Assembly: GCA_965208575.1 (NCBI GenBank)
Contig: CBDBOV010000006.1
Span: forward strand, 480,001 to 544,000
DNA from: Spirochaetia bacterium
GTDB taxonomy: Bacteria; Spirochaetota; Spirochaetia; SZUA-6; Bin103
Direction: 5' to 3'
Length of the DNA: 64,000 nucleotides
The first letter of the stretch is position 1. Each line of letters opens with the position of its first letter. The notes below the pieces were generated by a model, which was not told the DNA's origin, ran no database searches, and saw only the letters and a program-made list of their open reading frames with translations. Both the position numbers and the translations under genes were made by a program. Shown piece after piece: positions 2,415 to 56,467 of this stretch.

Positions 2415-3000
2415 TGTTTCTCCATTCAAAGTGATTTTTGAGAGTATTGCGTAGCGGATTACCGCTCCCTGGCTACTCTCGGGCACGCAACGCGGACGGC
2501 CAGTCTGAGTCAGATTCACTAAGCGCGCGGCGTGTGACTCATCCGGGTGCACCCCGGCTCACGCCGCGCGCGCGTGCGGTTCTTTGAGTATCATTCGAAC
2601 CTTCTTCTTCTCTAGATCTGCGTCGGGATCTGCGTTACAACGCCACGCGTGGCGGTGGTCGGAGCAGCAGTGAGTCTGAGTGGCCGCCAACGCAGGCGGA
2701 GGGTTTTGCGCGCAGTTAGTCGCAGGCGGGGATCCGGCACCGCCTGAGTCGACGGGATGGGTGCGGGCGGTCTGGCGATCGACCGAGCCGGCGCCACCGA
2801 CAGCTACGGCGGCGGTGAAGGCGACGGCGTGCGCGGGGGCGCGTGCGCGGCGGTCAGCCGGAGCGGTCAGTTGTTTCTCGGTTCGAAAAAGTGGGGGCGC
2901 GGGCGTAGCAGGATGCACTGGCTGCGTCACAACTAAACCGGTCTCTGCGCTACCTGTCATCATGGCGCTTCATCGGCATCCGTCGAACCCCAGGCGAGAC

Positions 3001-3030
3001 ACGATAGAATAGGCGCGGCGCCCCTGTCAA
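3001..3030 (-). promoter_or_regulatory. Putative sigma70 promoter upstream of SBP1
   Basis: Minus strand TTGACA-18nt-TATCGT. Confidence 0.5.
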
Positions 3031-3082
3031 CGACTCGGCGGTCACCGAAAGGAAGGATGGTAGGACACGGTCTGATGATGGA

Positions 3083-5206: not shown

Positions 5207-7012
5207 TCAGGATCCCATCTCGCGCTTCAGATCCTGATCGATCCAGAGGCGGGCGAAGATCGGCATTTTCTGAATATGGCCGAGATCACCTTCCCCGTTG
5301 TAGCCCTTGAGCCATGGCTGGCCGACATTGAACAGGGGAGCTCTCGGCCCCCGTATCACCCATATCCCCTCGGCGATGCGCAGGTCGGCCTTGCGCGCCC
5401 ACTCCTGCTGCTCCTCCAGCGTGGTGGCGGTCAGCATGTTCTGGAAGTACTCGTCAAACTCAGCGTCGATGACGTTCTGGTCCCGCCACCCGCTTGTCGA
5501 CGACGCATCGGAGATGTCAGAGATCACACCGGGATACTCGGCGCCATGCACATCCGTCCTCAACCCGAGATAGGGACAGTCAAACGGGTTCGAACTGCAC
5601 TCGATGCCCTTCTGCTGGTGTGTCGCGCGGGTAACCTCCTGGATCTCGACGTCGATGCCGATCTTCCTGAGGTAATCCATGGCGATCTGATAGTAGCCGA
5701 GGTCGAAGAACTCGTAGTGTTCGTAGACGGTCTTGAAACGCACGCCGTCCGCGCCGCGCGGAAGGCCGGCCTCGTCCAGCAGCTTCTCGGCCGCCTCGGG
5801 GTCGAACCGATACCACTGCGCGATCTCCTCGGGCCACTCTTCGAACGGCACCGCATACCCGAGCACAGCCCTGCCAAAACCGCCGACGGGCGTCGTATCG
5901 GACCACCCCTGATGGTAGGATTCCGAGATGGCGTCGAAGTCTATGGCCATGTTGAGGGCACGGCGCACGCGGATGTCGTTCCAAGGTGCGCTCTGGTTGT
6001 CAAACGTGAACGCCGTCTCCGCACGAAACGAAAACGTGGAAAACTGCAACTCGGGATTGGTCTCCTGCAGACTCAGGGCCTGGTCGACGCTGGAGAGGTG
6101 CGAGTTCGTTCCCCACCCCATCCAATCCGCCTGCCCAGAGCGCATCAGGGACAGCCTGGTAGCCGGGTCAGAGACGATCAGGAGCTCGATCTGATCGGCG
6201 TAGGGCAAACGGTTGTCGGGGAACTTCTCGTCGAAGCCCCAGTAGTCATCGATCCTGGTGTAGGTCCACGAACTTCCCTCCACCACGTCAGTAAGCTGGT
6301 AGGGCCCCGTTCCGGTCACGTTGCGCCAGTCTTGAATGTCCCCGAACTGCTCGACGACCTCGCGGGCGACGATGTAGGCATGATGAGAAACGGATAGTGT
6401 CTTCAAGGCCTCGAGAAAGGGCGCTTTCAACTTGACCACGACCGTGGAATCGTCGGGAGCGGTGATCGAATCCCAGTCCATCTTAGGCAGCTGTCCGATC
6501 CCTAAATCCTGCCCCGGCTCGCCGCCGTCAAAGCCCAGGAGCCGGTTGTAGCTGTATGCGACATCGTGGGCGGTCAGCTGCCGGCCGTTCACCGGCGCCT
6601 TGTCGTGCCAGAACACGTCGTCACGAATCTTGAACACGTAGGTGAGCGGATCCGGGTTCTCCCAGCTCTCAGCCAGCTGTCCGATGAGGACCTCGACGGG
6701 CAGGTAGAGCGTGTTATAACCGAACACACTCCGGTCGAATGACCAGTCGCCAATGCCCAGCTTCTCGTTGACCAGCCCGATCCAGCCCCCCGCGGAGTAA
6801 ACGAAGTAGGGGTCGATGCCCTCCGGCTTGCCGGCGACAAGCAATCTGATCGTGCCGCCATATTCGGGCGCGGTCACCATCTCGCCGGTGGCCGGGTCGA
6901 GCACCATCTCCTTCTCGGCCGCGGCCGCCGGCTGGTCGCTCTCGCCGCTGGCGAACGTAACGGTAGCCACCAGCGCGAACACCAGCGGCAGCAATAGGAG
7001 TCTTGGAGTCAT
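5207..7012 (-). CDS. ABC transporter substrate-binding protein, family 5 (SBP2)
   Basis: GAGGAGGAG RBS then MTPRLLLLPLVFALVATVTFA signal peptide; family-5 motifs. Confidence 0.93.
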   Translation of the reverse strand: MTPRLLLLPLVFALVATVTFASGESDQPAAAAEKEMVLDPATGEMVTAPEYGGTIRLLVAGKPEGIDPYFVYSAGGWIGLVNEKLGIGDWSFDRSVFGYNTLYLPVEVLIGQLAESWENPDPLTYVFKIRDDVFWHDKAPVNGRQLTAHDVAYSYNRLLGFDGGEPGQDLGIGQLPKMDWDSITAPDDSTVVVKLKAPFLEALKTLSVSHHAYIVAREVVEQFGDIQDWRNVTGTGPYQLTDVVEGSSWTYTRIDDYWGFDEKFPDNRLPYADQIELLIVSDPATRLSLMRSGQADWMGWGTNSHLSSVDQALSLQETNPELQFSTFSFRAETAFTFDNQSAPWNDIRVRRALNMAIDFDAISESYHQGWSDTTPVGGFGRAVLGYAVPFEEWPEEIAQWYRFDPEAAEKLLDEAGLPRGADGVRFKTVYEHYEFFDLGYYQIAMDYLRKIGIDVEIQEVTRATHQQKGIECSSNPFDCPYLGLRTDVHGAEYPGVISDISDASSTSGWRDQNVIDAEFDEYFQNMLTATTLEEQQEWARKADLRIAEGIWVIRGPRAPLFNVGQPWLKGYNGEGDLGHIQKMPIFARLWIDQDLKREMGS

Positions 7013-7219
7013 AACGTAACTCCTCCTCGTTTTCGGGAGACGGGACCGGGTTCCGTCGCCCGTGGTCTTGGACCGGAGACTCCGGCCTTCTCGAATGGTC
7101 CTTGTATTCACGGCGCGGGGTATTGGAGCGGTAGGTGTGGATATGGACGGGAGCCGCTAGCAGCCCGTGGTGGAACCCGGCGTAGCACCGAGAGCGGCGA
7201 GGCGCCCGGCTGGCAAGGC

Positions 7220-9219
7220 GTCCGGGTAGCCCAGGGCGGTTGCCCGCCCCAGGCCCCCACAGTCCCGTGCGAGCGCGATTGACGCACACGGTTCCTCAGG
7301 TCGTAGAGTTCGCTGCATAGATGGACTGGACGACACGAACGGCCGGCAGCGGATATCGGGCCAGCAACCGCGCAAAGCAGGCCCACGTGAGGCGTCGTCC
7401 ACCGCGCCGGTTCAGCCACTTCAACCAGAGGCGCTTGGCGGCGTCGTGGAAGTACCCCAACGAGCGCCCATTGCCGGTAATGCCGTAATACCCATAGTGG
7501 CCCAGCAGCTTGCGCCGGAGGGCCGCTTGCTGCGCCCGCAGAGGCTCGTGCCGATGGCGCTTACACCACACGGCGAGTGCTCGTAACGCACGGGTCAGCC
7601 GGTCGGAGGCGGTTTTCCGCTTCACGATCCACTTCCCGTTGCGCGAGCGCCCCCAATAGTGCGTGAATCCCAAGAATGGAAAACTCGCCCCGTGGTGGGC
7701 TGTCGCGTTCCCTCCCGGCGGTCGAAACTGAAGCATCCGTGTCTTTTCCTCGTGCACGGTCAACCCGTACTTCGCGAAGCGCTTTGGTAACACGCGCAGC
7801 ACGTTCTCGGCATCGCGCCGGTCGCTGAACGTCAGTACCGCATCGTCCGCAAAACGCACCAGGAACGCCCGCCCCCGCAGGCGCGGTCGGACCACCTCAT
7901 AGAACCATCGGTCGAGTACCTCGTGCAGATAAACATTGCTGAGCAACGGCGATAGTACGCCACCTTGCGGTGTCCCCTGCTCCGGGTAGGTCACTGAGCC
8001 ATCTTCCATGACCCCTGCCTTTAGCCATTTTCCGATCAATCGTGTGATCACTCCATCTCGCATCCGCTGTGCCAGAATCGTGCGCATGGTAGCGTGTGAC
8101 AGCGTGTCGAAATACTTTCGTATGTCCAGGTCTATCACCCAACCGCCCCCTTGACCCATCATCTGGTCCCAGAGTGCTTGCAGCGCCGTGTGCGGCGATC
8201 GCTTCGGGCGAAAGCCGTGTGCACAGCTTAGAAAGTCTCGCTCGTACAGGGGCTCAAGCAGCATCTGTACCGCCCGCTGAAGTACCTTGTCCTCGAAGGT
8301 CGGTATCCCGATCGGGCGGGTTTCTCCGCCCTTCCCTTTCGGAATGTGCGCCCGCCTTACCGGCGGCGCGCGGTACGTTCCCGCCTTCGCCCGCTCCAGC
8401 AGTGATTTCAAATTCTGCTCCAGGTTCTCCCCGTACTGCTCGGCAGTCTGTTCGTCAACTCCAACTGCACCATCCTTCCGGGTACGCCGGTAGGCTTCGT
8501 ACAGCCACTCCAGATCCATGTGATACGCCAGCGACGTGAATGCCACGCCGGCGTGGATTCTCGCGTTCTCTGCTATCTGCTGCTGTTTCGTTAACACGTT
8601 CCCGGATTCCATCGCATCCTCCATGTTTCCCCGCACCAGTTCTACGACTTGACGCCCTCCTTCCCTCCGCCGGGTCCGGTGCGGCGACCGTTCCCCCGCT
8701 TCCTCGGTACTATGGGGGCGCTAAGACTGCTCGTTGCCCTTCCCGCCGCGCTTCGTTGCCTTCGCTTGGCGGTACCACGACCGCACCCGCTGCTTCGCTC
8801 CTGCACGTTCACGGGCGCTCTCCCGTGCAGGCCCGGACGTTGGTGTGCCGGCGTCCCTCCGGCTCTCCCGTCATGGAGACATCGAGCTCTCCCAGGTTCC
8901 TGGGCCACCCGCTCCGCATCTGCCCTGCTCTCCGACCCCGACCGGGCCGCCGTGCCTCGCCATTTCGGCACGTACGGTGCTGCCCCCGCATTGTCGACTA
9001 CGAAGGCCCCAGCGAGCTTTCTCCTTTCGAGGCTCAATCACACGGCTTCTGCGGTCGCTGTCTACGCTTCGCCCTCAGGGTCGCCCCTGCCGACGCAAGA
9101 CTCGCTTCCGGCTGCTTGCTATGCTTTACCGGATGGGATTGGCTACCCACGGGGTGGCTAAGAAAGGTTTCTGATGTCTATTTCATCTTCCTCCTTCCCC
9201 AGGCTTGGCCTGGCGCGAC
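7220..9219 (-). mobile_element. Group II intron (~2.0 kb)
   Basis: RT/maturase ORF followed by domain V/VI-like GAACCGTGTGCG...CGCACGG...GGGCAACCGCCCTGGGCTACCCGGAC; 5' end GTCGCGCC; flanks rejoin to resemble the intron-less paralogous leader near 25441-25460. Confidence 0.88.
7296..8636 (-). CDS. ltrA: Group II intron reverse transcriptase/maturase, no obvious endonuclease domain
   Basis: RPIGIPTFEDKVLQ, HGFRP, IDLDIRKYFD, GTPQGGVLSPLLSN, RFADD, FLGF, maturase GHYGYY. Confidence 0.93.
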   Translation of the reverse strand: MRGNMEDAMESGNVLTKQQQIAENARIHAGVAFTSLAYHMDLEWLYEAYRRTRKDGAVGVDEQTAEQYGENLEQNLKSLLERAKAGTYRAPPVRRAHIPKGKGGETRPIGIPTFEDKVLQRAVQMLLEPLYERDFLSCAHGFRPKRSPHTALQALWDQMMGQGGGWVIDLDIRKYFDTLSHATMRTILAQRMRDGVITRLIGKWLKAGVMEDGSVTYPEQGTPQGGVLSPLLSNVYLHEVLDRWFYEVVRPRLRGRAFLVRFADDAVLTFSDRRDAENVLRVLPKRFAKYGLTVHEEKTRMLQFRPPGGNATAHHGASFPFLGFTHYWGRSRNGKWIVKRKTASDRLTRALRALAVWCKRHRHEPLRAQQAALRRKLLGHYGYYGITGNGRSLGYFHDAAKRLWLKWLNRRGGRRLTWACFARLLARYPLPAVRVVQSIYAANSTT

Positions 9220-9595
9220 GACGAACGAGCATATCCGGGCGCAGGAGTCTGTCGGGTGACGACAGGCTCCTGCGCGCAGGTTGGGATGGGCCGAAAGCGG
9301 CGTCCGTTGGACGGCGCTTTCGGGGCGATATGTGAGCGAGGAGCAAACGCAGCCAGCCGGGATGGATCGCCGCTCGAATGCAGCCGGAGCTCCACCACGG
9401 GCTGCTCGGTCGTCAGCGGCGCGGATGGTGGCAGAGCGGTGGACGTGGCTCGGTGGGCGTAGCGAACGGTCAGTTACCGGGTGCTTGGTTTGTTGGACGG
9501 AGCAGGACGGAGCGCTGGCGCTTGCAGCGAACCGGCGGCTGCGGCGGGCTGTGCAATCGCGCTTCATCCGCGCTTGTCCTCCTCCCGGAGCCATC

Positions 9596-13489: not shown

Positions 13490-14352
13490 CTACGAGCCGG
13501 AGCGATCCATGCGCGCAAGGAACTCGGCAATCGTGGCGCAGTCCACGATCCACTCTCCGGTTTCGGCGAGACGATCCGCGTCCGTCACTTCAGCAAGCAC
13601 CGTCGCCAGCCGCTCCGCCGCCGCCGGGCCGAACCGCCGCTCCGCCAAGCGGCGCAACAACGCCTTCTCCCGCTCGATACCCTGCTCGATACCCTGCTCG
13701 ATACCCTGCTCGATACCCTGCTCGATACCCTGCTCGATACCCCGCTCGATGCCCCGCTCGATGCCCCGCTCGATGCCCTGCTCGATGCCCTGCTCGATGC
13801 CCTGCTCCAGGATTTCCGCTCCCCAGCGATCAATCTTTTCCGCCAACACTGCACTTGCCTCCTCGTACTCGCGGATCGATGGCAACTCCACGCCCCACTT
13901 CCGCCCCAGGGCGCCGAGCCACAGGTCAAAGGTCCTCGTCAGCCCCGGCTCGCCTGCCTCGGCGAGCCATTCACCCAACTCCCGCACCCGCTCCGGCAGA
14001 GCCCCGACCTGCACGCTCTGCTCCACTTCCGCCACCCACCGTAGCAGGTTCGTCCGTGGCAGATCATCCCCTCTCACCGCCGCCAGATCAAGCACCTCGT
14101 AGCTCAGCGCCAGATGCGCGGCACCGTCCTGCTCCGTCCGCTCCACCAGCCCGGCGAGCGTTACCGGCGCGTCCCACCGTCTATCACCATTGTACACGAC
14201 CACGTGCAACACCGGGTCCGCCGTGTCGCTCTTGCTCCACTTGGTGCGGTCATGGTACAGCCGCTGGTACAGCAGGCTCGTGTAGTTCAGGAACCGCAAC
14301 GGCATCGAGTAGTCCACGCTCGACTGATGCTCGATCACCACGTGCAGCGTGT
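13490..14352 (-). pseudogene. Rpn/YhgA-like PD-(D/E)XK nuclease, 3' part (split by transposon)
   Basis: VIEHQSSVDYSMPLRFLNY...EQGI repeats; near-identical to intact copy 27279-28301. Confidence 0.88.
13670..13809 (-). repeat. 12-bp coding tandem repeat (E[QR]GI, ~11 units)
   Basis: CCCTGCTCGATA-type units. Confidence 0.9.
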
Positions 14353-18148: not shown

Positions 18149-18363
18149 GATTCTCTGCCGGTGGCCGCACCATCGCAACGACGCCGCGCCATTCGGCGGG
18201 GGATTCTAACCTGACGACCTGCGGGGCGGTAGCGCGTCGCGTGAGGTGCGTGAGGTGATGGTTGTCGGGGCGTTGACGATGGCGAACGCGACCGTATCCG
18301 CGCAGACAGGGCAGCCGATTGTCGGAAAACACATTCGTGAGCCAAGTGTCCGGCGGGCCGGAT

Positions 18364-21055: not shown

Positions 21056-21990
21056 AGCGTAACTCCTCCTCGTTTTCGGGAGCGGGACGGCGTCCCGTGC
21101 CCGTGTTCCTGGACCGGAAACTCCGGCCTCGTCGAATGGTCCTGGTAGTCGTTGTCGCACCCAAGGGCGCCGCGAGCGCCGCCTCGGATGGGAGTGGTGC
21201 GATGGGTGTGGATATGAGCGGGAGCCGCTACGTCGTTAGCGGCGCGGATGGCGACAGAGTGGTGGACGTGGCTCGGTGAGTGGAGAGAGCGGTCGCGAGC
21301 GGATACGCGCAGGAGAACTGCTTTGGCGTGGCCGGGCCAAGAGCCGGAGCGATCGATGCGCGCAAGGAACTCGGCAATCGTGGCGCAGTCCACGATCCAC
21401 TCTCCGGTTTCGGCGAGACGATCCGCGTCCGTCACTTCAGCAAGCACCGTCGCCAGCCGCTCCGCCGCCGCTGGGCCGAACCGCCGCTCCGCCAAGCGGC
21501 GCAACAACGCCCTCTGCCGCTCGATGCCCTGCTCCAGGATTTCCGCTCCCCAGCGATCAATCTTTTCCGCCAACACTGCGCTTGCCTCCTTGTACTCGCG
21601 GATCGATGGCAACTCCACGCCCCACTTCCGTCCCAGGGCGCCGAGCCACAGGTCAAACGTCCTCGTCAGCCCCGGCTCGCCAGCCTCGGCGAGCCACTCA
21701 CCCAACTCCCTCACGCGCTCTGGCAGAGCCCCGGCCTGCACGCTCTGCTCCACTTCCGCCACCCACCGTAGCAGGTTCGTCCGTGGCAGATCATCCCCTC
21801 TCACCGCCACAGATCAAGCACCTCGTATCTCAGCGCCAGATGCGCGGCGCCGTCCTCCTCCGCCCTCGCCAGCAGCCCGGCGAACGTCACCGGCGCGTCC
21901 CACCGTCTGTCACCATTGTACACGACCACGTGCAACACCGGGTCCGCCGTGTCGCTCTTGCTCCACTTGGTGCGGTCATGGTACAGCCGC
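21052..21990 (-). pseudogene. Rpn remnant lacking N-terminal nuclease region; C terminus reads through into SBP3 leader
   Basis: Homology to 27279-28301 with deletion and frameshift; stop TAG changed to TGG. Confidence 0.8.
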
Positions 21991-25634: not shown

Positions 25635-25822
25635 TCGGTCGTCAGCGGCGCGGATGGCGACAGAGTGGTGGACGTGGCTCGGTGAGCGGAGAGAGCGGTC
25701 AGTTACCGAGTGCTTGGTTTGTTGCGGAGCAGGACGGAGCGTTAGCGTTTGCAGCGAACCGCGCCCGCGGCGGGCTGTGTAATCGCGTTTCATCCGCGCT
25801 TGTCCTCCTCCGGGAGGCCACC

Positions 25823-27278: not shown

Positions 27279-28301
27279 CTACGAGCCGGAGCGATCGATG
27301 CGCGCAAGGAAGTCGGCAGTCGTGGCGCAGTCCACGATCCACTCCCCGGTCTCGGCGAGACGATCCGCGTCCGTCATCTCGGCAAGCACCGTCGCCAGCC
27401 GCTCCGCCGCCGCAGGGCCGAACCGCCGCTCCGCCAAGCGGCGCAACAACGCCTTCTGCCGCTCGATGCCCTGCTCGATGCCCTGCTCGATGCCCTGCTC
27501 GATCCCCTGCTCGATGCCCTGCTCGATCCCCTGCTCCAGGATTTCCGCTCCCCAGCGATCAATCTTTTCCGCCAACACTGCACTTGCCTCCTCGTACTCG
27601 CGGATCGATGGCAGCTCCACGCCCCACTTCCGCCCCAGGGCGCCGAGCCACATGTCAAAGGTCCTCGTCAGCCCCGGCTCGCCAGCCTCGGCGAGCCACT
27701 CACCCAACTCCCTCACCCGTTCCGGCAGAGTCCCGGCCTGCACACTCTGCTCCACTTCCGCCACCCACCGTAGCAGGTTCGACCGTGGCAGACCATCACC
27801 CCTCACCGCCACCAGATCAATCACCTCGTAGCTCAGCGCCAGATGCGCGGCACCGTCCTGCTCCGTCCGCTCCACCAGCCCGGCGAGCGTCATCGGCGCG
27901 TCCCACCGGTTGTCTCCATTGTACACGACCACGTGCAACACCGCGTCGGCCGTGTCGCTCTTCCTCCACTTGGTGCGGTCATGGTACAGCCGCTGGTACA
28001 GCAGGCTCGTGTAGTTCAGGAACCGTAGCGGCATCGAGTAGTCCACGCTCGACTGATGCTCGATCACCACGTGCAGCGTGTGCACGCCGCCGCGCCCGTC
28101 GCGCCGGTCGATCGACCACACCACGTCACCAAGCCGCCGCCGCAACTCGTCGGTGACGTTCTCGGTGGGGCCTTCGCGCAGGCTGTCGAAGTCGAGAGCG
28201 GCGGCCCATCCCGACGGCCGCCGCGGGGCGATGAACCCGAGGAGCAAGTCCTTGACGATGCGTTGGTGCGTGAGCAGGCGTTTGTACGCGGGGTCGTCCA
28301 T
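27279..28301 (-). CDS. Rpn family recombination-promoting nuclease/putative transposase (intact)
   Basis: D.AYKRL, GDVVW, IEHQS, MPLRFLNY, VVVYNG...W, EQGI repeats. Confidence 0.9.
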   Translation of the reverse strand: MDDPAYKRLLTHQRIVKDLLLGFIAPRRPSGWAAALDFDSLREGPTENVTDELRRRLGDVVWSIDRRDGRGGVHTLHVVIEHQSSVDYSMPLRFLNYTSLLYQRLYHDRTKWRKSDTADAVLHVVVYNGDNRWDAPMTLAGLVERTEQDGAAHLALSYEVIDLVAVRGDGLPRSNLLRWVAEVEQSVQAGTLPERVRELGEWLAEAGEPGLTRTFDMWLGALGRKWGVELPSIREYEEASAVLAEKIDRWGAEILEQGIEQGIEQGIEQGIEQGIEQGIERQKALLRRLAERRFGPAAAERLATVLAEMTDADRLAETGEWIVDCATTADFLARIDRSGS

Positions 28302-28530
28302 GGTTCTCTGCCGGTGGCCGCGCCATCGCAACGACGCCGCGCCATTCGGCGGGGGATTCTAACCTGACGACTTGCGGGGCGGTAGCGCCTCGCGTGAGGT
28401 GCGTGAGGTGCGTGAGGTGATGGTTGTCGGGGCGCTGACGATGGGGTACGCGACCGTATCCGCGCAGACAGGGCAGCCGATTGTCGGAAAGACGTTCGTG
28501 AGCCAAGTGTGCGGCGGGCCGGATTCAGTG

Positions 28531-29371: not shown

Positions 29372-30232
29372 TCACTTCTTGGGCGCTCCGTAGCGACCGC
29401 TACCGCCGCGCAGCCGGGGGTCGAGCAGGTCGCGGATCGCGTCGCCGAACATGTTGATGCCGTACACGACAACGGTCAGGCACAGGCCCGGCCAGATCGC
29501 CAGCCGCGGCGCGATGGTCATGTACTGGCGTCCCTCGCGGCTGAGCATGCCGCCCCAGCTCGGCACCGTGGTCGGCAGTCCGAAGCCGAGGAAGCTCAGC
29601 GACGCCTCGGCCACGATGATGGCGCCGATGGTGATCGAGAAGATGATGATGATGGGCGGCATGACATTCGGCAGCACGTGTCGCCACAGGATCTGTGCGG
29701 CGGGGCTGCCAACTGCTCGGGCGGCCTGGAAGTAGTCGTTCTCCTTGATGGCGATGACGGCACTGCGCATCACCCGGGAATTGCTGATGCCCGAGGAGAT
29801 GCCGAGCACGACAATGATCTGTAGCACACCACGGCCGGCCAGCGACATGATCGTCAGCAACAGCAGCAGCCCCGGCATCGACATCCACGCGTCGACGAAG
29901 CGTTGCACTATCAGATCGTATTTTCCGCCGAGAAACCCGGCGACGCCACCGACCAGCGCCGCGACCACCACGTGCAAGGTGGTCGCCGCCAGCCCGACAA
30001 ACAGCGACAGGCGCGCCCCGTGGATCAGCCGGCTCAGGAAGTCGCGTCCCAGCTGGTCGGTGCCGAGCGGATGCACGCTCGATGGCTCCGCCAGGCGATT
30101 ATCCAGGTTCATCTCGCCGAAACGAAATGGCGCCAGAACATCGGCAAAGACACTCACCAGGATCAACACCAGCAGGATGGCGGCCCCGACGGTACCCAAC
30201 GGATGCTCCCTGAGCAGTCTCTTCAGCAGCAT
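29372..30232 (-). CDS. ABC transporter permease, DppC-like
   Basis: LGTDQLGRD, EASLSFLG, PSWGGML. Confidence 0.93.
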   Translation of the reverse strand: MLLKRLLREHPLGTVGAAILLVLILVSVFADVLAPFRFGEMNLDNRLAEPSSVHPLGTDQLGRDFLSRLIHGARLSLFVGLAATTLHVVVAALVGGVAGFLGGKYDLIVQRFVDAWMSMPGLLLLLTIMSLAGRGVLQIIVVLGISSGISNSRVMRSAVIAIKENDYFQAARAVGSPAAQILWRHVLPNVMPPIIIIFSITIGAIIVAEASLSFLGFGLPTTVPSWGGMLSREGRQYMTIAPRLAIWPGLCLTVVVYGINMFGDAIRDLLDPRLRGGSGRYGAPKK

Positions 30233-30237
30233 ACCCG

Positions 30238-31200
30238 CTACCGGTAGCGCACGCGCGGGTCGAGCAACCCGTAGAGCAGATCGACCACCAGGTTGATGAC
30301 CACCACGCCGGCGGCAAAGACCAGGTTTACGCCGGAGACCATCGGGTAATCTCGGTCGACGAGGGCATTCACCAAGAGACGCCCGATCCCCGGCAGGTTG
30401 AAGATGTTCTCCATTATTACCGATCCGCCGATCAGGATGGGGAGCTGCAGACCGGTGAGGGTGATCACCGGAATGAGGGCATTCTTGATGGCGTGCCTGA
30501 CGACGACCACTCGTTCCCGCAGGCCCTTGGACCAGGCCGTTCGTACGTAGTCTTGCCTGAGCACCTCCAGCATCATGGTGCGGGTCATGCGCATGGTCGC
30601 GGCGGCGAAGTAGGTGCCCAGAATCAGACTGGGGACGATGAACACGCCGAGATTGCCGAGCAGGTCATCGGAGAGGGCAATCATCCGAATCGGCGGGGTC
30701 CAGTTCCACCAGATCGCCGGAAAGACAATGACCAGCAGACCCAGCCAGAAGTTGGGCGTCGCCAATCCGACTACCGCTAGGGAACGCCCAGCGTAGTCGG
30801 CGAGCGTGTTACGGCGGATCGCCGAGTAGATGCCCACCGGCAGCGCGATGATGAGCCCGATGGCGATTGACAGAAGGCCAAGCTCGAGGGTGACCGGCAA
30901 CCTGCGGAGAATCTGCTCCTCTATCGTAATGGCGCTGCCAAGCAGCGACTTCCCGAGCGTGCCGTCCAGCACGATGCCGCCGATCCAGCGCGCGTACTGC
31001 ACGTGCGCAGGCACATCAAGGCCGAGAAAGCGCTCGAGCTCTGCGCGAGTTTCAACAGTTCCTCCAGAAATACTGCTGGTCAAAAGCATCGCGTCGATAA
31101 CATCACCGGGGATGAAACGGATGAGCAGGAACACCAGGATGCTGACCAACAACAACGTCGGGATCATCAGCAGCAGCCGTCTAATGATGTAGGCTCTCAT
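30238..31200 (-). CDS. ABC transporter permease, DppB-like
   Basis: QDYVRTAWSKGL, KNALIP, RDYP. Confidence 0.93.
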   Translation of the reverse strand: MRAYIIRRLLLMIPTLLLVSILVFLLIRFIPGDVIDAMLLTSSISGGTVETRAELERFLGLDVPAHVQYARWIGGIVLDGTLGKSLLGSAITIEEQILRRLPVTLELGLLSIAIGLIIALPVGIYSAIRRNTLADYAGRSLAVVGLATPNFWLGLLVIVFPAIWWNWTPPIRMIALSDDLLGNLGVFIVPSLILGTYFAAATMRMTRTMMLEVLRQDYVRTAWSKGLRERVVVVRHAIKNALIPVITLTGLQLPILIGGSVIMENIFNLPGIGRLLVNALVDRDYPMVSGVNLVFAAGVVVINLVVDLLYGLLDPRVRYR

Positions 31201-31361: not shown

Positions 31362-33140
31362 TCAGAACCCCATCGATTTCTTCAGATCGAGGTCGAGCCA
31401 GAGGCGCGCCAAGACAGGGGCGCGACTCCAATTTATGAACTCGCCGTCGTAGCCCTTGACCCAGGGCTGGTTCACATTGAGATTCGGTGCCTTGCCGCCC
31501 CACACGTAATAGTGGTTTCGCAACATGAGTAGGAGCGCTTCCTGCGAAGCCCTCTGCTGCTCCTCGAGAGTAGACGCGCTTTGCGCGGCCTGAAACAGGG
31601 CATCGAACTCCGGGTTCGACACACCGGCGGGGTTCCATCCCGCGGTTGAGAGGCTCTGCGCCAACGGAGACAGCTCACCCCACGTATTCCCCACCGGATA
31701 GGAGGTCATGCTTTGGTAATCATGATTATTGATCCCAGCCGCCCAATCAGCGGTGGACGTGACCTGTACCTCGACGTCGATACCAACCTCGAGAAGCTGC
31801 TCCGCCATGATCTCGAATATGTTCACATCGTAGACATCTCTTGCCTCGATGTTGGTTTTGAACCTGATACCATCGGCGCCGCGCGGGTAGCCGGCATCGT
31901 CGAGGAGCTTCTCTGCCTCGGCCGGGTTGTACCGGTAGAACTTCTTGATCTCCTCGGGCCACTCGTCGAATGGCGGTGAATACCCTACGATGTCGATCGC
32001 CGTGTGGGCCTCAGGCGTCGCTCTCCCCCTGCCCTTCCAGTAGGAGTCGTTGATCGCTTCCACATCGAGTGCCATCTGGACCGCGTGGCGAACTCTGAGG
32101 TCGTTGGTCGGCTCCACGGCGAGATTCATCGCAAGACCCATTCCGCTCTCATAATACTCCGTGACCTGGGTTTCGGGATTGGTCCGCGTGAGATCCTCAA
32201 CAACGTCGACACTGTATATATGCGAATAGGAGAGCCCACCCAAGTAGTCGATCTGGCCCGACCGGAATGCTGCCAAACGCGTCGACTCCTCGGGCATCAC
32301 CAACCACACGATCTCGTCGATATAGGGCAGGCGATTGTCCGGGTACTTCTCGTCGAACGCCCAGTAGTTGGGGTTCTTGGTGTAGCTCAGGGAGCTGCCC
32401 TCGACCCAGTCGACCAGCTCATAGGGGCCGGTGCCAACCAGGTTGCGCCAATCCAAGAGGTCGCCGTGCTCTTCGATGACCTCTGGCGGCATGATGTTAC
32501 TGGTGTAATGGTAGAGGATCGTCCGCTCCGCGGCGAAATTGGGCTCCTTTAGCCGAAAGACGACCGTATGGTCGTCGGTGGCCGTTACCGATTCGATGCC
32601 GATGTCGTCGAGCTGCGACTGCTGCGCCACGATGGGGCTGCCTTCGGTGTAGCCACTGCCCAGCCCCAAATAGCGGTGCCAGTTGTATTCCACATCCTTG
32701 GCAGTGAGCTCCCGACCATTCATCGGCGCCTTGTCGTGCCAGTGGACGCCGCTTCGGATCCGGACCGCAAGCGTCACCGGGTCGGTCCATTCCCAGCTCT
32801 CGGCCAACTCACCGGCTATCGCGAAGAGAGGCAGATACCCCGATTGAAAACCGAATCGCTGCCTGTCTATCGCCCAGTCCGCGATGCCCAGCTTCTCGTT
32901 CGTGAACATCCAGGCAACCTGACCCACGTGCCCTTGCCAGGGGTCGGAATTCGCAGGCTCGGCGACCGACCCGAAGGTGATGGTGCCGCCGTACTCGGGC
33001 GCGGTCACCATCTTGCCGGTGGCTGGGTCGCGCACCATTTCCTTCTCGGCCGCGGATGCTTCCTCGCCCTCGGCGGCGGCGAACGTAACGGTAGCCACCA
33101 GCGCGAACGCCAGCGGCAGCAATAGGAGTCTTGGAGTCAT
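31362..33140 (-). CDS. ABC transporter substrate-binding protein, family 5 (SBP5)
   Basis: RBS, signal peptide, family-5 motifs; closest to SBP8. Confidence 0.93.
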   Translation of the reverse strand: MTPRLLLLPLAFALVATVTFAAAEGEEASAAEKEMVRDPATGKMVTAPEYGGTITFGSVAEPANSDPWQGHVGQVAWMFTNEKLGIADWAIDRQRFGFQSGYLPLFAIAGELAESWEWTDPVTLAVRIRSGVHWHDKAPMNGRELTAKDVEYNWHRYLGLGSGYTEGSPIVAQQSQLDDIGIESVTATDDHTVVFRLKEPNFAAERTILYHYTSNIMPPEVIEEHGDLLDWRNLVGTGPYELVDWVEGSSLSYTKNPNYWAFDEKYPDNRLPYIDEIVWLVMPEESTRLAAFRSGQIDYLGGLSYSHIYSVDVVEDLTRTNPETQVTEYYESGMGLAMNLAVEPTNDLRVRHAVQMALDVEAINDSYWKGRGRATPEAHTAIDIVGYSPPFDEWPEEIKKFYRYNPAEAEKLLDDAGYPRGADGIRFKTNIEARDVYDVNIFEIMAEQLLEVGIDVEVQVTSTADWAAGINNHDYQSMTSYPVGNTWGELSPLAQSLSTAGWNPAGVSNPEFDALFQAAQSASTLEEQQRASQEALLLMLRNHYYVWGGKAPNLNVNQPWVKGYDGEFINWSRAPVLARLWLDLDLKKSMGF

Positions 33141-33400
33141 AGCGTACTCCTCCTCGTTTTCGGGAGCGGTACTGCGTCCCTGTACCCGTGGTCTTGGGCC
33201 GGAAACTCCGACCCTTCTGGAATGGTCCTCGTAGATGTCGCACCCAAGGGCGCCGCGAGCGCCGCCCGGGATGGGCGTGGTGCGATGGGTGTGGATATGA
33301 ACGGGAGCGGATAGTCGTCAGCGGCGCGGATGACGGCAGAGTGGTGGATGCGGCTCGGTAAGCGGAAAGAGCGGTCAGTTACCGGGTGCTTGGTTTGTTG

Positions 33401-33476
33401 CGGAGCAGGACGGAGCAGGACGGAGCAGGACGGAGCAGGACGGAGCAGGACGGAGCAGGACGGAGCAGGACGGAGC
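33401..33476. repeat. 10-bp tandem repeat (CGGAGCAGGA)x7 plus partial, in SBP5 leader
   Basis: Direct reading; same unit x1 at 9498 and 25725, x3 at 38451, x2 at 42816 and 56359. Confidence 0.95.
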
Positions 33477-33549
33477 GGTAGCGAACTGACGGATGCGGCG
33501 GGCTGTGTGATCGCGCTTCATCCGCGCTTGTCCTCCTCCCGGAGCCATC

Positions 33550-33577
33550 ACTCTACCACACGCCCGGCCACGGTCAA
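33550..33577 (-). promoter_or_regulatory. Conserved SBP promoter (SBP5 copy)
   Basis: TTGACC-16nt-TAGAGT with TGn. Confidence 0.65.
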
Positions 33578-33756
33578 GTACGCGTTTGGCGGGTTGGCGG
33601 ACTGGTGGTTGCCACAGTTGCCTCGGAGCATATTCCGCTTCCAGTCGTGACCTGGATCCGTTCAGTCTGCAACGACCGGGCAAACCCTGCGGCTGCAAGC
33701 GGTCCGACATTGATCATGGTTCCCGTAGCGCCAGTGTCCAGGGCGAGAACGCCGGC

Positions 33757-38235: not shown

Positions 38236-38568
38236 GATGTACTCCTCCTCTTATTCGGGAGCGGGACTGCGTCCCGGTACCCGTGGTCTTGGGCCGGCAA
38301 CTCCGGCCTTTTCGAATGGTCGTAGTATTCGCGGCGCGGGATAGTGGATCGATGGGTATGAATACGGACGGGAGCCGCTACTAGCCCGTCAGCGGCGCGG
38401 TGGTGCGGTGAGCGGAGAGAGCGGTCAGTTACCGGTTGCTTGGCGTGTTGCGGAGCAGGACGGAGCAGGACGGAGCAGGACGGAGCGCTAACGCTTGCAG
38501 CGAACGGGCGGCCGCGGCGGGCTGTGTGATCGCGCTTCATCCGCGCTTGTCCTCCTCCCGGAGCCATC

Positions 38569-42556: not shown

Positions 42557-42924
42557 AGCGTACTCCTCCTCGTATTCGGGAGCGGGACTGGGTCCGGTAC
42601 CCGTGGTCTTGGGCCGGACACTCCAGCCCTCTCGAATGGTCCTGGTAGTCATCGCACCCAAAGGCGCCCCGAGCGCCACCTCGGATAAGCGTGGTGCGAT
42701 CGCTGTGGATACGAACGGGTGCCGCTACGCCGTTAGCGGCGCAGATGGCGGCCGAGGGGTATATGAGGCTCGGAGAGCGGCGGGAGCGGTCAGTTACCGG
42801 GTGCTTGGTTTGTTGCGGAGCAGGACGGAGCAGGACGGAGCGCTGGCGCTTGCAGCGAACGGCGCGTCTACGGCGGGCTGTGTAATCGCGCTTCATCTGC
42901 GCTTGTCTTCCTCCCGAAGCGATC

Positions 42925-48018: not shown

Positions 48019-48039
48019 GTTATGAGTATAGCACCTTGG

Positions 48040-48201
48040 AAGCCTAACAAGCCTAACAAGCCTAACAAGCCTAACAAGCCTAACAAGCCTAACAAGCCTA
48101 ACAAGCCTAACAAGCCTAACAAGCCTAACAAGCCTAACAAGCCTAACAAGCCTAACAAGCCTAACAAGCCTGACAAGCCTAACAAGCCTGACAAGCCTGA
48201 C
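48040..48201. repeat. 9-bp tandem repeat (AAGCCTAAC, variant AAGCCTGAC) x18
   Basis: Direct reading. Confidence 0.95.
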
Positions 48202-48202
48202 A

Positions 48203-48310
48203 GGAGGACACCGTCCGATGACGGACTACCGGCATTCCCTGCGTTCCACTTCTGCAGGGCCCTGGTTGCGCGCCCGGCGGCGTGCGTGTGCCTACGCCGT
48301 CGGCCAGTGA
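48203..48310 (-). pseudogene. Degenerate DppC 3' tail plus downstream flank
   Basis: Matches 3060-3160 and 26646-26745 (GATGACGGACTACCGG...GCGTTCCA.CTTCTGCAGGGC). Confidence 0.7.
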
Positions 48311-48399
48311 GCCGACGGCATGCGGCGGTGACGTGCGGTGCGACCCCGGCGCGTCGGCCGCGCGACGGGCGCGCGCAAACTCCGATAGACTGGCGGCTC

Positions 48400-49641
48400 A
48401 TGCAGAGTCGAGCCACACCGCCAGCCGACGTGTTCAACCTCGGCGTGCTCGGCGTCGCGCAGGCGCTGGGGCTGTCGGCCATGTCGATGATGATCTTCAT
48501 CGGCGGCATAGTCGGGCGCGGGCTGGCCCCGCGGCCGGCGCTGGCGACGCTGCCCCTGGCGCTTGCCATCATCGGTCTGGCCGCCAACACTGTCCCGGCG
48601 GCGCTGTTGGCGCGCCGGCTCGGTCGGCGGCGCGCGTTCGTTATCGGGGCGCTGCTGGCAACCGCGGCGGCACTGGTGCTCGCGCTCGCGGTCAGCCGCG
48701 GCAGCTTCGCGCTGTTCTGCGGAGCGGCCGTGGTGCTCGGGATGAACGGCGCGTTCGTGCAGCAGTACCGCTTCGCCGCCGCCGAGAGCGCAACGCCCGA
48801 ATATGCCGGGCGCGCCGTTGCCTATGTGCTGGTCGGCGGCATGGTGGGCGGCGTACTCGGGCCCGAGGTGGCCAGGCGGAGCCGCCATCTGCTGGAGACC
48901 GAATATGCCGGCGGCTTTCTGGTGCTTGCCGCACTGCTGACGCTGTTGGCGCTGGTGGTCAGCCGCCTGCGGGACAACGGCGCTCGCTCCGCCGCGCCAC
49001 CGCCCCATCGCACGCCGGTCGCAGGCGCGCCACCCGAGGTGCGGTCCGCAGCCGCCTCCCGCCTGTCCGCGCCCGGCTTCGGCGTGGCGGTGCTGGCGGC
49101 GGCGGCCGCCTACGCGGTCATGTCGTCGATCATGACCGCCACGCCGCTGCACCTGAACGCTACCGGCTTGTCCCTCGATCGAACCGCCATCATCATCCAG
49201 AGCCACGTCATTGCGATGTACCTGCCGTCGCTCGCCAGCGGCTACATCATGGACCGCCTGGGCGTCGCTCGCGTGCTCCTGGTGGGGGTGGCCGGTATGA
49301 CCGCATCGGTCGTGGTGGGGGTGTATGCGGCGAGCCTCCCGGCGTTCTGGGCCGCACTGGTCCTGCTCGGTCTCGGGTGGAACATGCTGTTTCTCGGCGG
49401 CACCGTGCTCCTGGCGCGGAGGGCCGCCGGGGCCGAACGCTTTCGCCTGCAGGCCATAAACGACTTCGGCGTGTTCGGCGCGCAGGCGCTGGCCTCCCTG
49501 TCGGCCGGGACCGCGCTGGTCCTGGTGGGGTGGGACGCCCTCAACCTCGCTGCGCTGCCGCTGCTGGCCGCGGTAGCGATCACCGTCCTGGTACGGCGCG
49601 CCGCCCTCTCAGGCACCGCCCGGCGACCCGCCGTTGCCTGA
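48400..49641 (+). CDS. MFS transporter
   Basis: About 12 hydrophobic segments, RRLGRR motif, QQYRFAAAE, MDRLG; start set at ATG 48400. Confidence 0.88.
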   Translation: MQSRATPPADVFNLGVLGVAQALGLSAMSMMIFIGGIVGRGLAPRPALATLPLALAIIGLAANTVPAALLARRLGRRRAFVIGALLATAAALVLALAVSRGSFALFCGAAVVLGMNGAFVQQYRFAAAESATPEYAGRAVAYVLVGGMVGGVLGPEVARRSRHLLETEYAGGFLVLAALLTLLALVVSRLRDNGARSAAPPPHRTPVAGAPPEVRSAAASRLSAPGFGVAVLAAAAAYAVMSSIMTATPLHLNATGLSLDRTAIIIQSHVIAMYLPSLASGYIMDRLGVARVLLVGVAGMTASVVVGVYAASLPAFWAALVLLGLGWNMLFLGGTVLLARRAAGAERFRLQAINDFGVFGAQALASLSAGTALVLVGWDALNLAALPLLAAVAITVLVRRAALSGTARRPAVA

Positions 49642-56150: not shown

Positions 56151-56467
56151 AACGGAACTCCTCCTCGTTTCGGGACGGGAGTGCTTCCCGGAACCCGTGG
56201 TTTCGGGCCGGGAACGCCGGCCTTTTCAAGTGGTTCTTGTAGTCGCGCCGCGGGATAGTGCGAGCCGCTACCTCACCAGCGGCGCAGATGGCGGCAGAGC
56301 GGTGGATGCGGCTTGGTGAGCGGAAAGAGCGGTCAGTTACCGGGTGCTTGGTTTGTTGCGGAGCAGGACGGAGCAGGACGGAGCGCTGGCGTCTGCAGCG
56401 AACGGAACGGCTGCGGCGGGCCGTGCGATCGCGCATCATCCTCGCTTGTCCTCCTCCCAGAGCCATC

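Follow-up and report, generated by a model that had tools for sequence, protein, structure and literature searches.

Can a tandem repeat that lies inside an upstream open reading frame (uORF), and not in the gene that follows, turn that gene on and off? The question is raised by positions 33141–33577 of a 64 000-nucleotide stretch of DNA (hereafter the window; positions 480 001–544 000 of contig CBDBOV010000006.1) from assembly GCA_965208575.1, a Spirochaetia bacterium of the SZUA-6 lineage (Bin103) whose genome comprises 6.5 Mb at 67% G+C on six contigs. Here a 10-bp tandem array appears to sit within a translated leader open reading frame (ORF), ahead of an operon for a family-5 solute-binding protein (SBP) and an ATP-binding cassette (ABC) transporter. 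An earlier note, made from the letters alone, had proposed a repeat within a uORF, followed by a motif that traps two reading frames. This architecture holds, and it is strengthened by our observation that the third frame is locked in register to the SBP start in most copies. Repeat-driven phase variation acting via the uORF is the probable explanation. Its specific form, a frame-sensing leader switch in which unit number sets the frame in which ribosomes exit the array and slippage moves the locus between ON and OFF, we regard as moderately probable.

All leader features described for the window lie on the minus strand (Table 1). The genome harbors ten leaders bearing the motif GGTAACTGA; six lie in the window and the other four on contig C5. 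For the six window copies, a shared order of promoter, strong Shine-Dalgarno (SD) sequence, MKRD/MMRD start, 10-bp array and GGTAACTGA had been described, and this was correct at every coordinate checked. The unit counts given for them (~1, 1, 7, 3, 2 and 2) were borne out, with the small correction that the array of the copy starting at 9567 comprises 1.9 units (19 nt, with a 2-nt difference at the array end). The genes downstream of all six encode PF00496 SBP_bac_5 proteins. Promoter-like sites in the region of the leader under study numbered two, against 0.0 expected from shuffled sequences, and no intrinsic terminator was found on the transcribed strand of the leader.

The copy under study illustrates how unit number and frame are tied. 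As assembled, its uORF has a translation that begins MKRDHTARRIRQF and ends at the TGA of GGTAACTGA. The SBP ATG follows the leader ATG by 381 nt, and over the 380 nt before the SBP start the frame ending on ATGA has no stop; with one unit fewer, or two more, the uORF would therefore enter that frame and become a 124-codon leader ORF ending on ATGA. This arithmetic bears out the statement that the 7-unit copy stops at the motif and would be reopened by the loss of a single unit. The described ends of the other uORFs were likewise confirmed, with ATGA overlaps in the 25793 and 38540 copies and an out-of-frame run past the SBP start in the 42896 and 56439 copies.

The strongest result is a register lock between the motif and the SBP start. 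By frame state, 28 copies over five genomes could be classified, two more being excluded for want of a usable start or because of a truncated leader. The 10-nt unit is contained in a frame that starts at an ATG behind a strong SD, and because ten is not a multiple of three, unit number would set the frame of ribosomes leaving the array. At 19–24 nt past the array, the trap stops TAA/TGA are located in two different frames. The motif had been said to close two of three frames, and it does so in every copy: the offset from first to second stop is 1 mod 3 in all 28 copies that fit the motif pattern, although the spacing is either 4 nt (GGTAACTGA) or 7 nt (GGTAAGTCCTGA and variants), and the first stop itself differs among copies (TAA, TGA, or TAG). 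Of greater consequence is the distance from the first trap stop to the SBP ATG, which is 1 mod 3 in 18 of the 21 copies with a recognizable SBP start (the other seven, one of them intron-interrupted, were left out of this count) and takes 11 distinct lengths from 190 to 463 nt (binomial p = 1.1e-6 against one third, the copies being kin). By genome, the register was found in 13/13 copies of four other genomes and in 5/8 of this one. With this register, the trap closes the frame of the SBP and one other, and the remaining frame ends on a TGA overlapping the SBP ATG (ATGA). Among open-frame copies with a recognized SBP start (n = 11), the end falls on ATGA in seven, beyond the start in two and short of it in one, and the remaining copy fuses in frame.

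The third frame is also kept open along its length. In a codon alignment of 17 of the 18 in-register copies (the 463-nt copy was left out), indels are whole codons or compensating frameshift pairs, one such pair occurring in the copy under study. Only two stops interrupt this frame over the 17 copies, both at its very end, compared with 16–35 stops in each of the other five frames; both other sense frames contain 35, counting one trap stop per copy in each. Within the open frame, a fraction of 0.254 of the single-base codon differences are synonymous, where 0.256 would be expected. The alignment suggests that the frame is kept while the peptide seems unconstrained, so that translation, and not its product, would matter. 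One alternative is that the long frame is a real small protein of ~100–180 aa, or that an antisense gene overlies it, and that coding constraint alone keeps the frame. The frame is indeed open for 97–184 codons in several copies, and a codon-aligned 72-aa stop-to-stop frame is present on the opposite strand of the copy under study. We consider this alternative very improbable: the synonymous fraction is at neutral expectation, compensated frameshifts alter long stretches of the peptide, and three leader ORF translations (48, 102, and 184 aa) matched 0 Pfam families at E up to 1. An antisense gene was rejected as the cause of the kept frame, as the three antisense frames carry 16–35 stops over the 17 copies. 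Two further properties of this alignment were recorded: frame +1 from the open frame has a synonymous-looking fraction of 0.41 against 0.30 expected, yet carries stops, and in the open frame the first codon positions are the most variable.

Table 1. Features of the leader under study, its operon and the sister leaders, in window coordinates.
Feature	Position	Strand	Details
Predicted sigma-70-type promoter	33550–33577	-	TTGACC-16-TAGAGT with TG extension; conserved in all copies (alignments)
Leader-ORF SD GGGAGGAGGA	33531–33540	-	in the six window copies, lacking in the four contig C5 copies
Leader ORF as assembled	33375–33521	-	ATG 33521, 48 codons, stop TGA 33377–33375; trapped, presumably OFF, frame
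10-bp tandem array	33401–33476	-	unit GCTCCGTCCT on the transcribed strand (CGGAGCAGGA on the + strand); Tandem Repeats Finder (TRF): 7.6 copies, 100% match
Two-frame stop trap GGTAACTGA	33375–33383	-	TAA 33381–33379, TGA 33377–33375
C-rich spacer	33137–33374	-	C 0.39, G 0.25; third frame open from the array to TGA 33139–33137 overlapping the SBP ATG
Latent long leader ORF, stop-to-stop	33517–33137	-	third frame across the spacer
Conserved GC hairpin in spacer	33196–33214	-	GGNCGGAGUUUCCGGCC type; predicted (alignment and alifold)
SBP SD GAGGAGGAG	33147–33155	-	predicted: 3' half can pair with SBP codons 2–3 (ACUCC)
Family-5 SBP gene	31362–33140	-	592 aa; ATG 33140–33138; PF00496, E 1.5e-73
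ABC permease genes (two)	30238–31200 and 29372–30232	-	same operon as the SBP; PF00528 in both
Sister leader	9470–9567	-	ATG 9567; array 9495–9513 (1.9 units); motif 9478–9470; open frame
Sister leader	25699–25793	-	ATG 25793; 1 unit; open frame; uORF 552 nt, ending on ATGA of the SBP start
Sister leader	38425–38540	-	ATG 38540; array 38451–38486 (3.6 TRF copies, 3 units); open; uORF 306 nt, ending on ATGA
Sister leader	42790–42896	-	ATG 42896; array 42816–42841 (2.6 TRF copies, 2 units); open; passes the SBP start out of frame
Sister leader	56333–56439	-	ATG 56439; array 56359–56384 (2.6 TRF copies, 2 units); open; passes the SBP start out of frame

Frame bookkeeping across the ten copies of the genome shows how unit number and small indels combine. 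Lengths from the ATG to the motif are 89, 86, 138, 107, 98, and 98 nt in the window and 107, 98, 147, and 97 nt on contig C5. Seven of the ten are 2 mod 3, the one residue at which the frame clears the motif; the residue is 0 in the two copies with 7 units and 1 in one copy with 2 units. Measured against a base length of 77 + 10n, the 3-unit copies fit exactly; the 1-unit copies deviate by −1 or +2 nt, and three of the 2-unit copies have 1 nt extra, at one or the other of two sites. By this pattern, small indels offset unit number.

Unit number itself varies both between near-identical paralogues and between congeners. Two paralogues on contig C5 carry 2 and 7 units, although their upstream flank and 5' leader match without gaps at 99.0% identity over 682 nt. 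In one congener, a 6-unit locus matches a 2-unit copy of this genome at 99.5% identity on the SBP side, and a 1-unit locus matches this genome's 3-unit copy at 96.8%. Across genomes, arrays range from 15 to 226 nt, the longest (204–226 nt, ~22 units) occurring in two congeners, and units within each array are identical even where loci differ in their unit (GCTCCGTCCT versus GCTCCGGCCT). These two paralogous operons (~186892 and 202058) are 99.0% identical upstream of the array and 85.4% downstream, which points to recombination or gene conversion whose breakpoint fell in or close to the repeat; the copies here and those of the congener likewise resemble each other in a mosaic fashion. Public sequencing runs containing the stretch were mostly labelled as sponge metagenome or as coded host organisms. 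The sole raw-read run (Hi-C) contributed five reads, none on a leader, and the other three consist of assembled contigs, which hold many pieces from paralogues and related strains and in which arrays longer than the word size are unresolvable. RNA contigs cover SBP genes. A 1-base insertion beside the 42816 array (one contig, one run) equals the sequence of a congener copy and was not counted.

The leader proved to belong to a larger superfamily. DNA searches covering 40 relatives detected it in 5/10 congeners, and a sequence-only model of the 5' 140 nt placed the family in 7/10 genomes of the genus and 0/13 of the sister genus. Iterated profile searches with the 5' module yielded 99 matches in the genome. 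A family-5 SBP was encoded within 2.5 kb downstream in 79 of the 98 modules covering the aligned start column, and 69 of the 122 family-5 SBP homologues had a module upstream. Most members contained a simple repeat at the same site, usually poly-C of 7 to 55 nt, but also 7-mers, an 8-mer (6 units), and the 10-mer; other 7- and 8-mers occur in congeners. Among the 44 leaders having both an ATG and a repeat, 39 had exactly two frames closed within 70 nt past the repeat, with the third open for at least 150 nt; two congeners showed the pattern of two closed frames in 13/17 loci. For the second small ORF found in such leaders, which has its own strong SD and reads M-I/V-L-K-E-P-H-A-R-A-A, the open frame was in register in 16/16 cases, sharing the stop of this ORF in 12 and ending on its start in four. 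A wider reading, which we put forward tentatively and hold to be possible rather than probable, is that ~70 nutrient-uptake operons per genome in this sponge-associated genus are each under a modular frame-sensing leader, forming a new class of phase-variation switch. Such a leader would combine a translated uORF, a hypermutable repeat whose unit is not a multiple of three, a two-frame trap, and a third frame locked in register to the downstream start.

Several results weigh against the frame-sensing switch. The excess of open frames noticed first in the window (5/6) stands there and weakens as copies are added, to 7/10 in the genome and to 14 open versus 14 trapped among the 28 copies classified over five genomes (p = 0.05 against one third, with copies being kin). 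In the superfamily, leader ORFs occupied the open frame in 15/38 cases, no more than expected by chance (p = 0.26). In this genome, three copies out of eight do not keep the register, with distances of 240, 189, and 167; two of these pass the SBP start and one fuses in frame. Signs of leader translation are themselves divided: the kept frame, its being the sole stop-free frame of six, and the strong SD of six copies speak for it, while the four contig C5 copies lack a strong leader SD, and codon-position periodicity, sought as proof of coding, was not found, third positions being no more variable (entropies of 1.06/1.03/1.06 in the 5' part of the superfamily and 0.80/0.65/0.66 in the long frame). 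A strong SD also precedes the SBP itself, which may be expressed whatever the leader does. Furthermore, repeat lengths were taken from a metagenome assembly (95% complete, 5.75% contamination). That unit counts and single-base indels are assembly errors is nonetheless extremely improbable. The six-contig metagenome origin, the contamination, and the fact that all three out-of-register copies belong to this genome would fit such errors, but the same architecture occurs with other unit counts in five other assemblies, and errors would not restore one particular frame.

Array length bears on a second alternative. Arrays of at most 40 nt were open in 12/16 copies and those of at least 48 nt in 2/12 (Mann–Whitney p = 0.011 for array length against frame state; Fisher p = 0.006, at a cut picked after seeing the data). 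Trapping of 10/12 long arrays is what would be expected if expansion follows the loss of constraint, and it can be argued that the leader ORF is translated and its frame kept while the repeat is simply a mutational hotspot, its unit changes representing compensated or tolerated damage and not a switch in use. Long out-of-frame arrays would then mark drifting leaders that have lost control, with the SBP made from its own ribosome-binding site. The strong SD of the SBP and the lack of open-frame enrichment in the superfamily agree with this, as do leaders that have decayed, such as window 2552–3031 (in-frame TAG, interrupted C tract). We nevertheless consider a mere hotspot unlikely. A repeat stands at the same site in most of ~100 modules with various units (poly-C, 7-, 8-, and 10-mers), indicating that it is kept and not accidental; trapped copies retain their latent frame, open and in register (380 nt in the copy under study); and the two-frame trap right behind the repeat is conserved.

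How might unit number reach the binding protein? Under the frame-sensing switch, ribosomes leaving the array in either of two frames would meet the UAA/UGA of the trap and leave the leader bare, with expression reduced or OFF. Those in the third frame would run through the C-rich leader (~190–460 nt) to the UGA overlapping the SBP start (AUGA), covering the leader, opening the SD/AUG region, and reaching the start, where translational coupling and reinitiation are expected (ON). Ribosome cover would probably also shield the leader from Rho-dependent polarity. Slipped-strand gain or loss of units would switch the state of the locus, the 7-unit copy under study being trapped, one unit from its open frame. 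We infer leader translation from frame conservation, because substitution patterns show no codon periodicity; the direction of the effect and switching within the population would follow from this scheme, as would any role of Rho. The genome encodes Rho (Rho_RNA_bind match of 115.6 bits in a 680-aa frame), and leaders are rich in C and poor in G (C 0.37–0.42, G 0.25–0.31, C/G 1.2–1.6) compared with the SBP gene (C 0.29, G 0.32). Single-sequence folds predicted a 5-bp GGAGU/ACUCC hairpin at the SBP AUG, whereas the alignment fold gave only weak pairing across the SD/AUG region, which is nearly invariant and hence lacks covariation. Arriving ribosomes may open this small predicted hairpin, which holds part of the SD and the AUG.

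Folding also bears on a third alternative: a non-coding leader RNA that regulates in cis, with array length and not frame setting a graded output, as with the heptamers ahead of the Haemophilus hmw adhesin genes. Added units would strengthen either anti-SD pairing, whether to GGGAGGAGGAC or to the SD of the SBP, or the loading of Rho at a C-rich site. In favor, minimum-free-energy folding of three copies from the window pairs repeat units GUCCUGCUCC with the SD of the leader, YC dinucleotides recur at regular spacing in the C-rich unit, a codon-type substitution pattern is absent, and long arrays might silence in any frame. Still, an effect of length alone appears improbable to us, since it leaves three observations unexplained: the trap-to-start distance of 1 mod 3 in 18/21 copies, the single stop-free frame of six, and the single-base indels that offset unit number. 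Pairing between the repeat and the leader SD was rejected as a general mechanism, as the contig C5 copies have the array but no such SD to pair with. The region 33100–33650 had no match in Rfam 15 at E up to 5; at the gathering score, the only match in the window is a group II intron at 8926–9142.

Repeat-based phase variation is known mainly from small-genome pathogens, with the repeat in the promoter or in the regulated gene itself. In its translational form, repeats lie in the 5' coding region, as with CTCTT in Neisseria opa, CAAT in Haemophilus lic1, and poly-G in Campylobacter. The leaders described here share with these a slippage-prone repeat, not a multiple of three, that lies in frame and whose unit number selects between a full reading and an early stop. 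They differ in that the repeat occupies an upstream leader ORF with an unconstrained peptide and not the regulated gene, so the SBP protein is never altered and its state must pass in cis via coupling or polarity. They also differ in unit size (10 nt), in setting (a large-genome sponge associate versus small-genome pathogens), and in having dozens of nutrient-binding proteins as targets. Translational coupling by overlapping stop and start codons (AUGA) is established between adjacent genes of biosynthetic operons. Here, too, the upstream UGA overlaps the SBP AUG (7/11 open copies, with 18/21 in that register), but the upstream frame is a repeat-gated regulatory ORF without a conserved product. 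Intergenic or 5' untranslated region (5'-UTR) repeats that grade expression are known from the heptamers of Haemophilus hmw and from Moraxella uspA2. These resemble our leaders in that a surface or uptake gene has a heteropolymeric repeat within its transcribed leader; unlike our leaders, they act on transcription, mRNA structure, or processing, where the frame signals found here are not expected.

For Haemophilus influenzae, phase variation dependent on simple sequence repeats (SSRs) is reported to need a 5'-UTR RNA element and RNase III (PMC12721329). Control by uORFs or leader peptides through Rho has been described for tnaC, speFL, and cruR in a review (PMC12360218). As in those systems, ribosome occupancy of a C-rich leader by an upstream ORF is proposed here to decide downstream expression. 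Their input, however, is a ligand or metabolite that stalls ribosomes, whereas ours would be a heritable frame set by the repeat, with Rho dependence inferred. The same review gives phase variation through Rho only for invertible DNA, namely E. coli fim and Clostridioides difficile flgB (PMC12360218). These share with our scheme a random, inherited change of the DNA through which an entry site for Rho in the leader is either uncovered or concealed, as we suppose here; they differ in using site-specific inversion without a uORF frame, where our leaders would use repeat slippage. Full-text searches of the literature turned up no upstream ORF in which a repeat gates the gene that follows, which is not proof that none is in print.

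If the switch operates as proposed, a gene is turned on and off in cis while the regulated protein remains untouched, and a symbiont population gains combinatorial diversity in uptake or in exposed periplasmic or surface proteins. It would differ from known cases in acting through an upstream ORF, ahead of 69/122 paralogous SBP genes, in an uncultured animal symbiont with a ~6.5 Mb genome. Stochastic, heritable diversification would thereby extend to symbiont nutrient uptake, the leader would offer a compact and portable design for frame-gated expression, and any assembled genome from these organisms would capture just one among many expression states. The comparative signals (register lock, two-frame trap, and unconstrained peptide) are unusually clean for evidence that is wholly computational.

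Other observations concern the leaders and their relatives. A group II intron (window 7296–9142, minus strand) lies between the 9567 leader and its SBP gene (5207–7111), and its insertion severs the leader ORF from the SBP start; the intron was recognized by a match to Rfam RF02005 at 8926–9142 (152.5 bits) and a reverse-transcriptase ORF at 7296–8636 (RVT_1). An isolated 47-nt piece of the post-motif part of the leader, 85% identical, occurs at 21248–21294 (minus strand), without promoter, array, or SBP start. The window also contains a seventh leader, of the poly-C sister type (2552–3031, minus strand), before the SBP gene at 618–2552. It carries its in-frame TAG at codon 8, its C tract is interrupted, its second small ORF MILKEPHARAA (2563–2598) is intact, and it looks decayed or locked. 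This second ORF (M-I/V-L-K-E-P-H-A-R-A-A) recurs in many superfamily leaders, with a GC-rich inverted repeat spanning its stop, and its product could be an arrest peptide or attenuator. On contig C4 (~509490–509662, minus strand), the repeat site of a superfamily leader is occupied by an unbroken stretch of 55 C; the ORF of this leader is in the open frame as assembled and would encode a long proline run. The 5' module itself, comprising the promoter and the start of the leader ORF, occurs head-to-tail up to five times at ~127-nt spacing before single SBP genes (L106 173–670; L084 250–688; G000 C6 950790–951177).

Tandem repeats of other kinds are also present in the window. The 9-bp repeat AAGCCTAAC occurs in 18 copies at 48040–48202 (plus strand), at the start of ORF 48022–49641, where it is in frame and encodes (KPN)n right after the first seven residues MSIAPWK. 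Two further repeats lie in duplicated regions or recur at two sites: a 12-bp repeat (GCTCGATACCCT / GCTCGATGCCCT) with 11.3 copies at 13672–13807 and 6.3 at 27461–27536, in duplicated regions, and a 9-bp repeat (GCGTGAGGT) with 2.1 copies at 18239–18257 and 3.1 at 28392–28419. For both, copy numbers are unequal between the duplicates.

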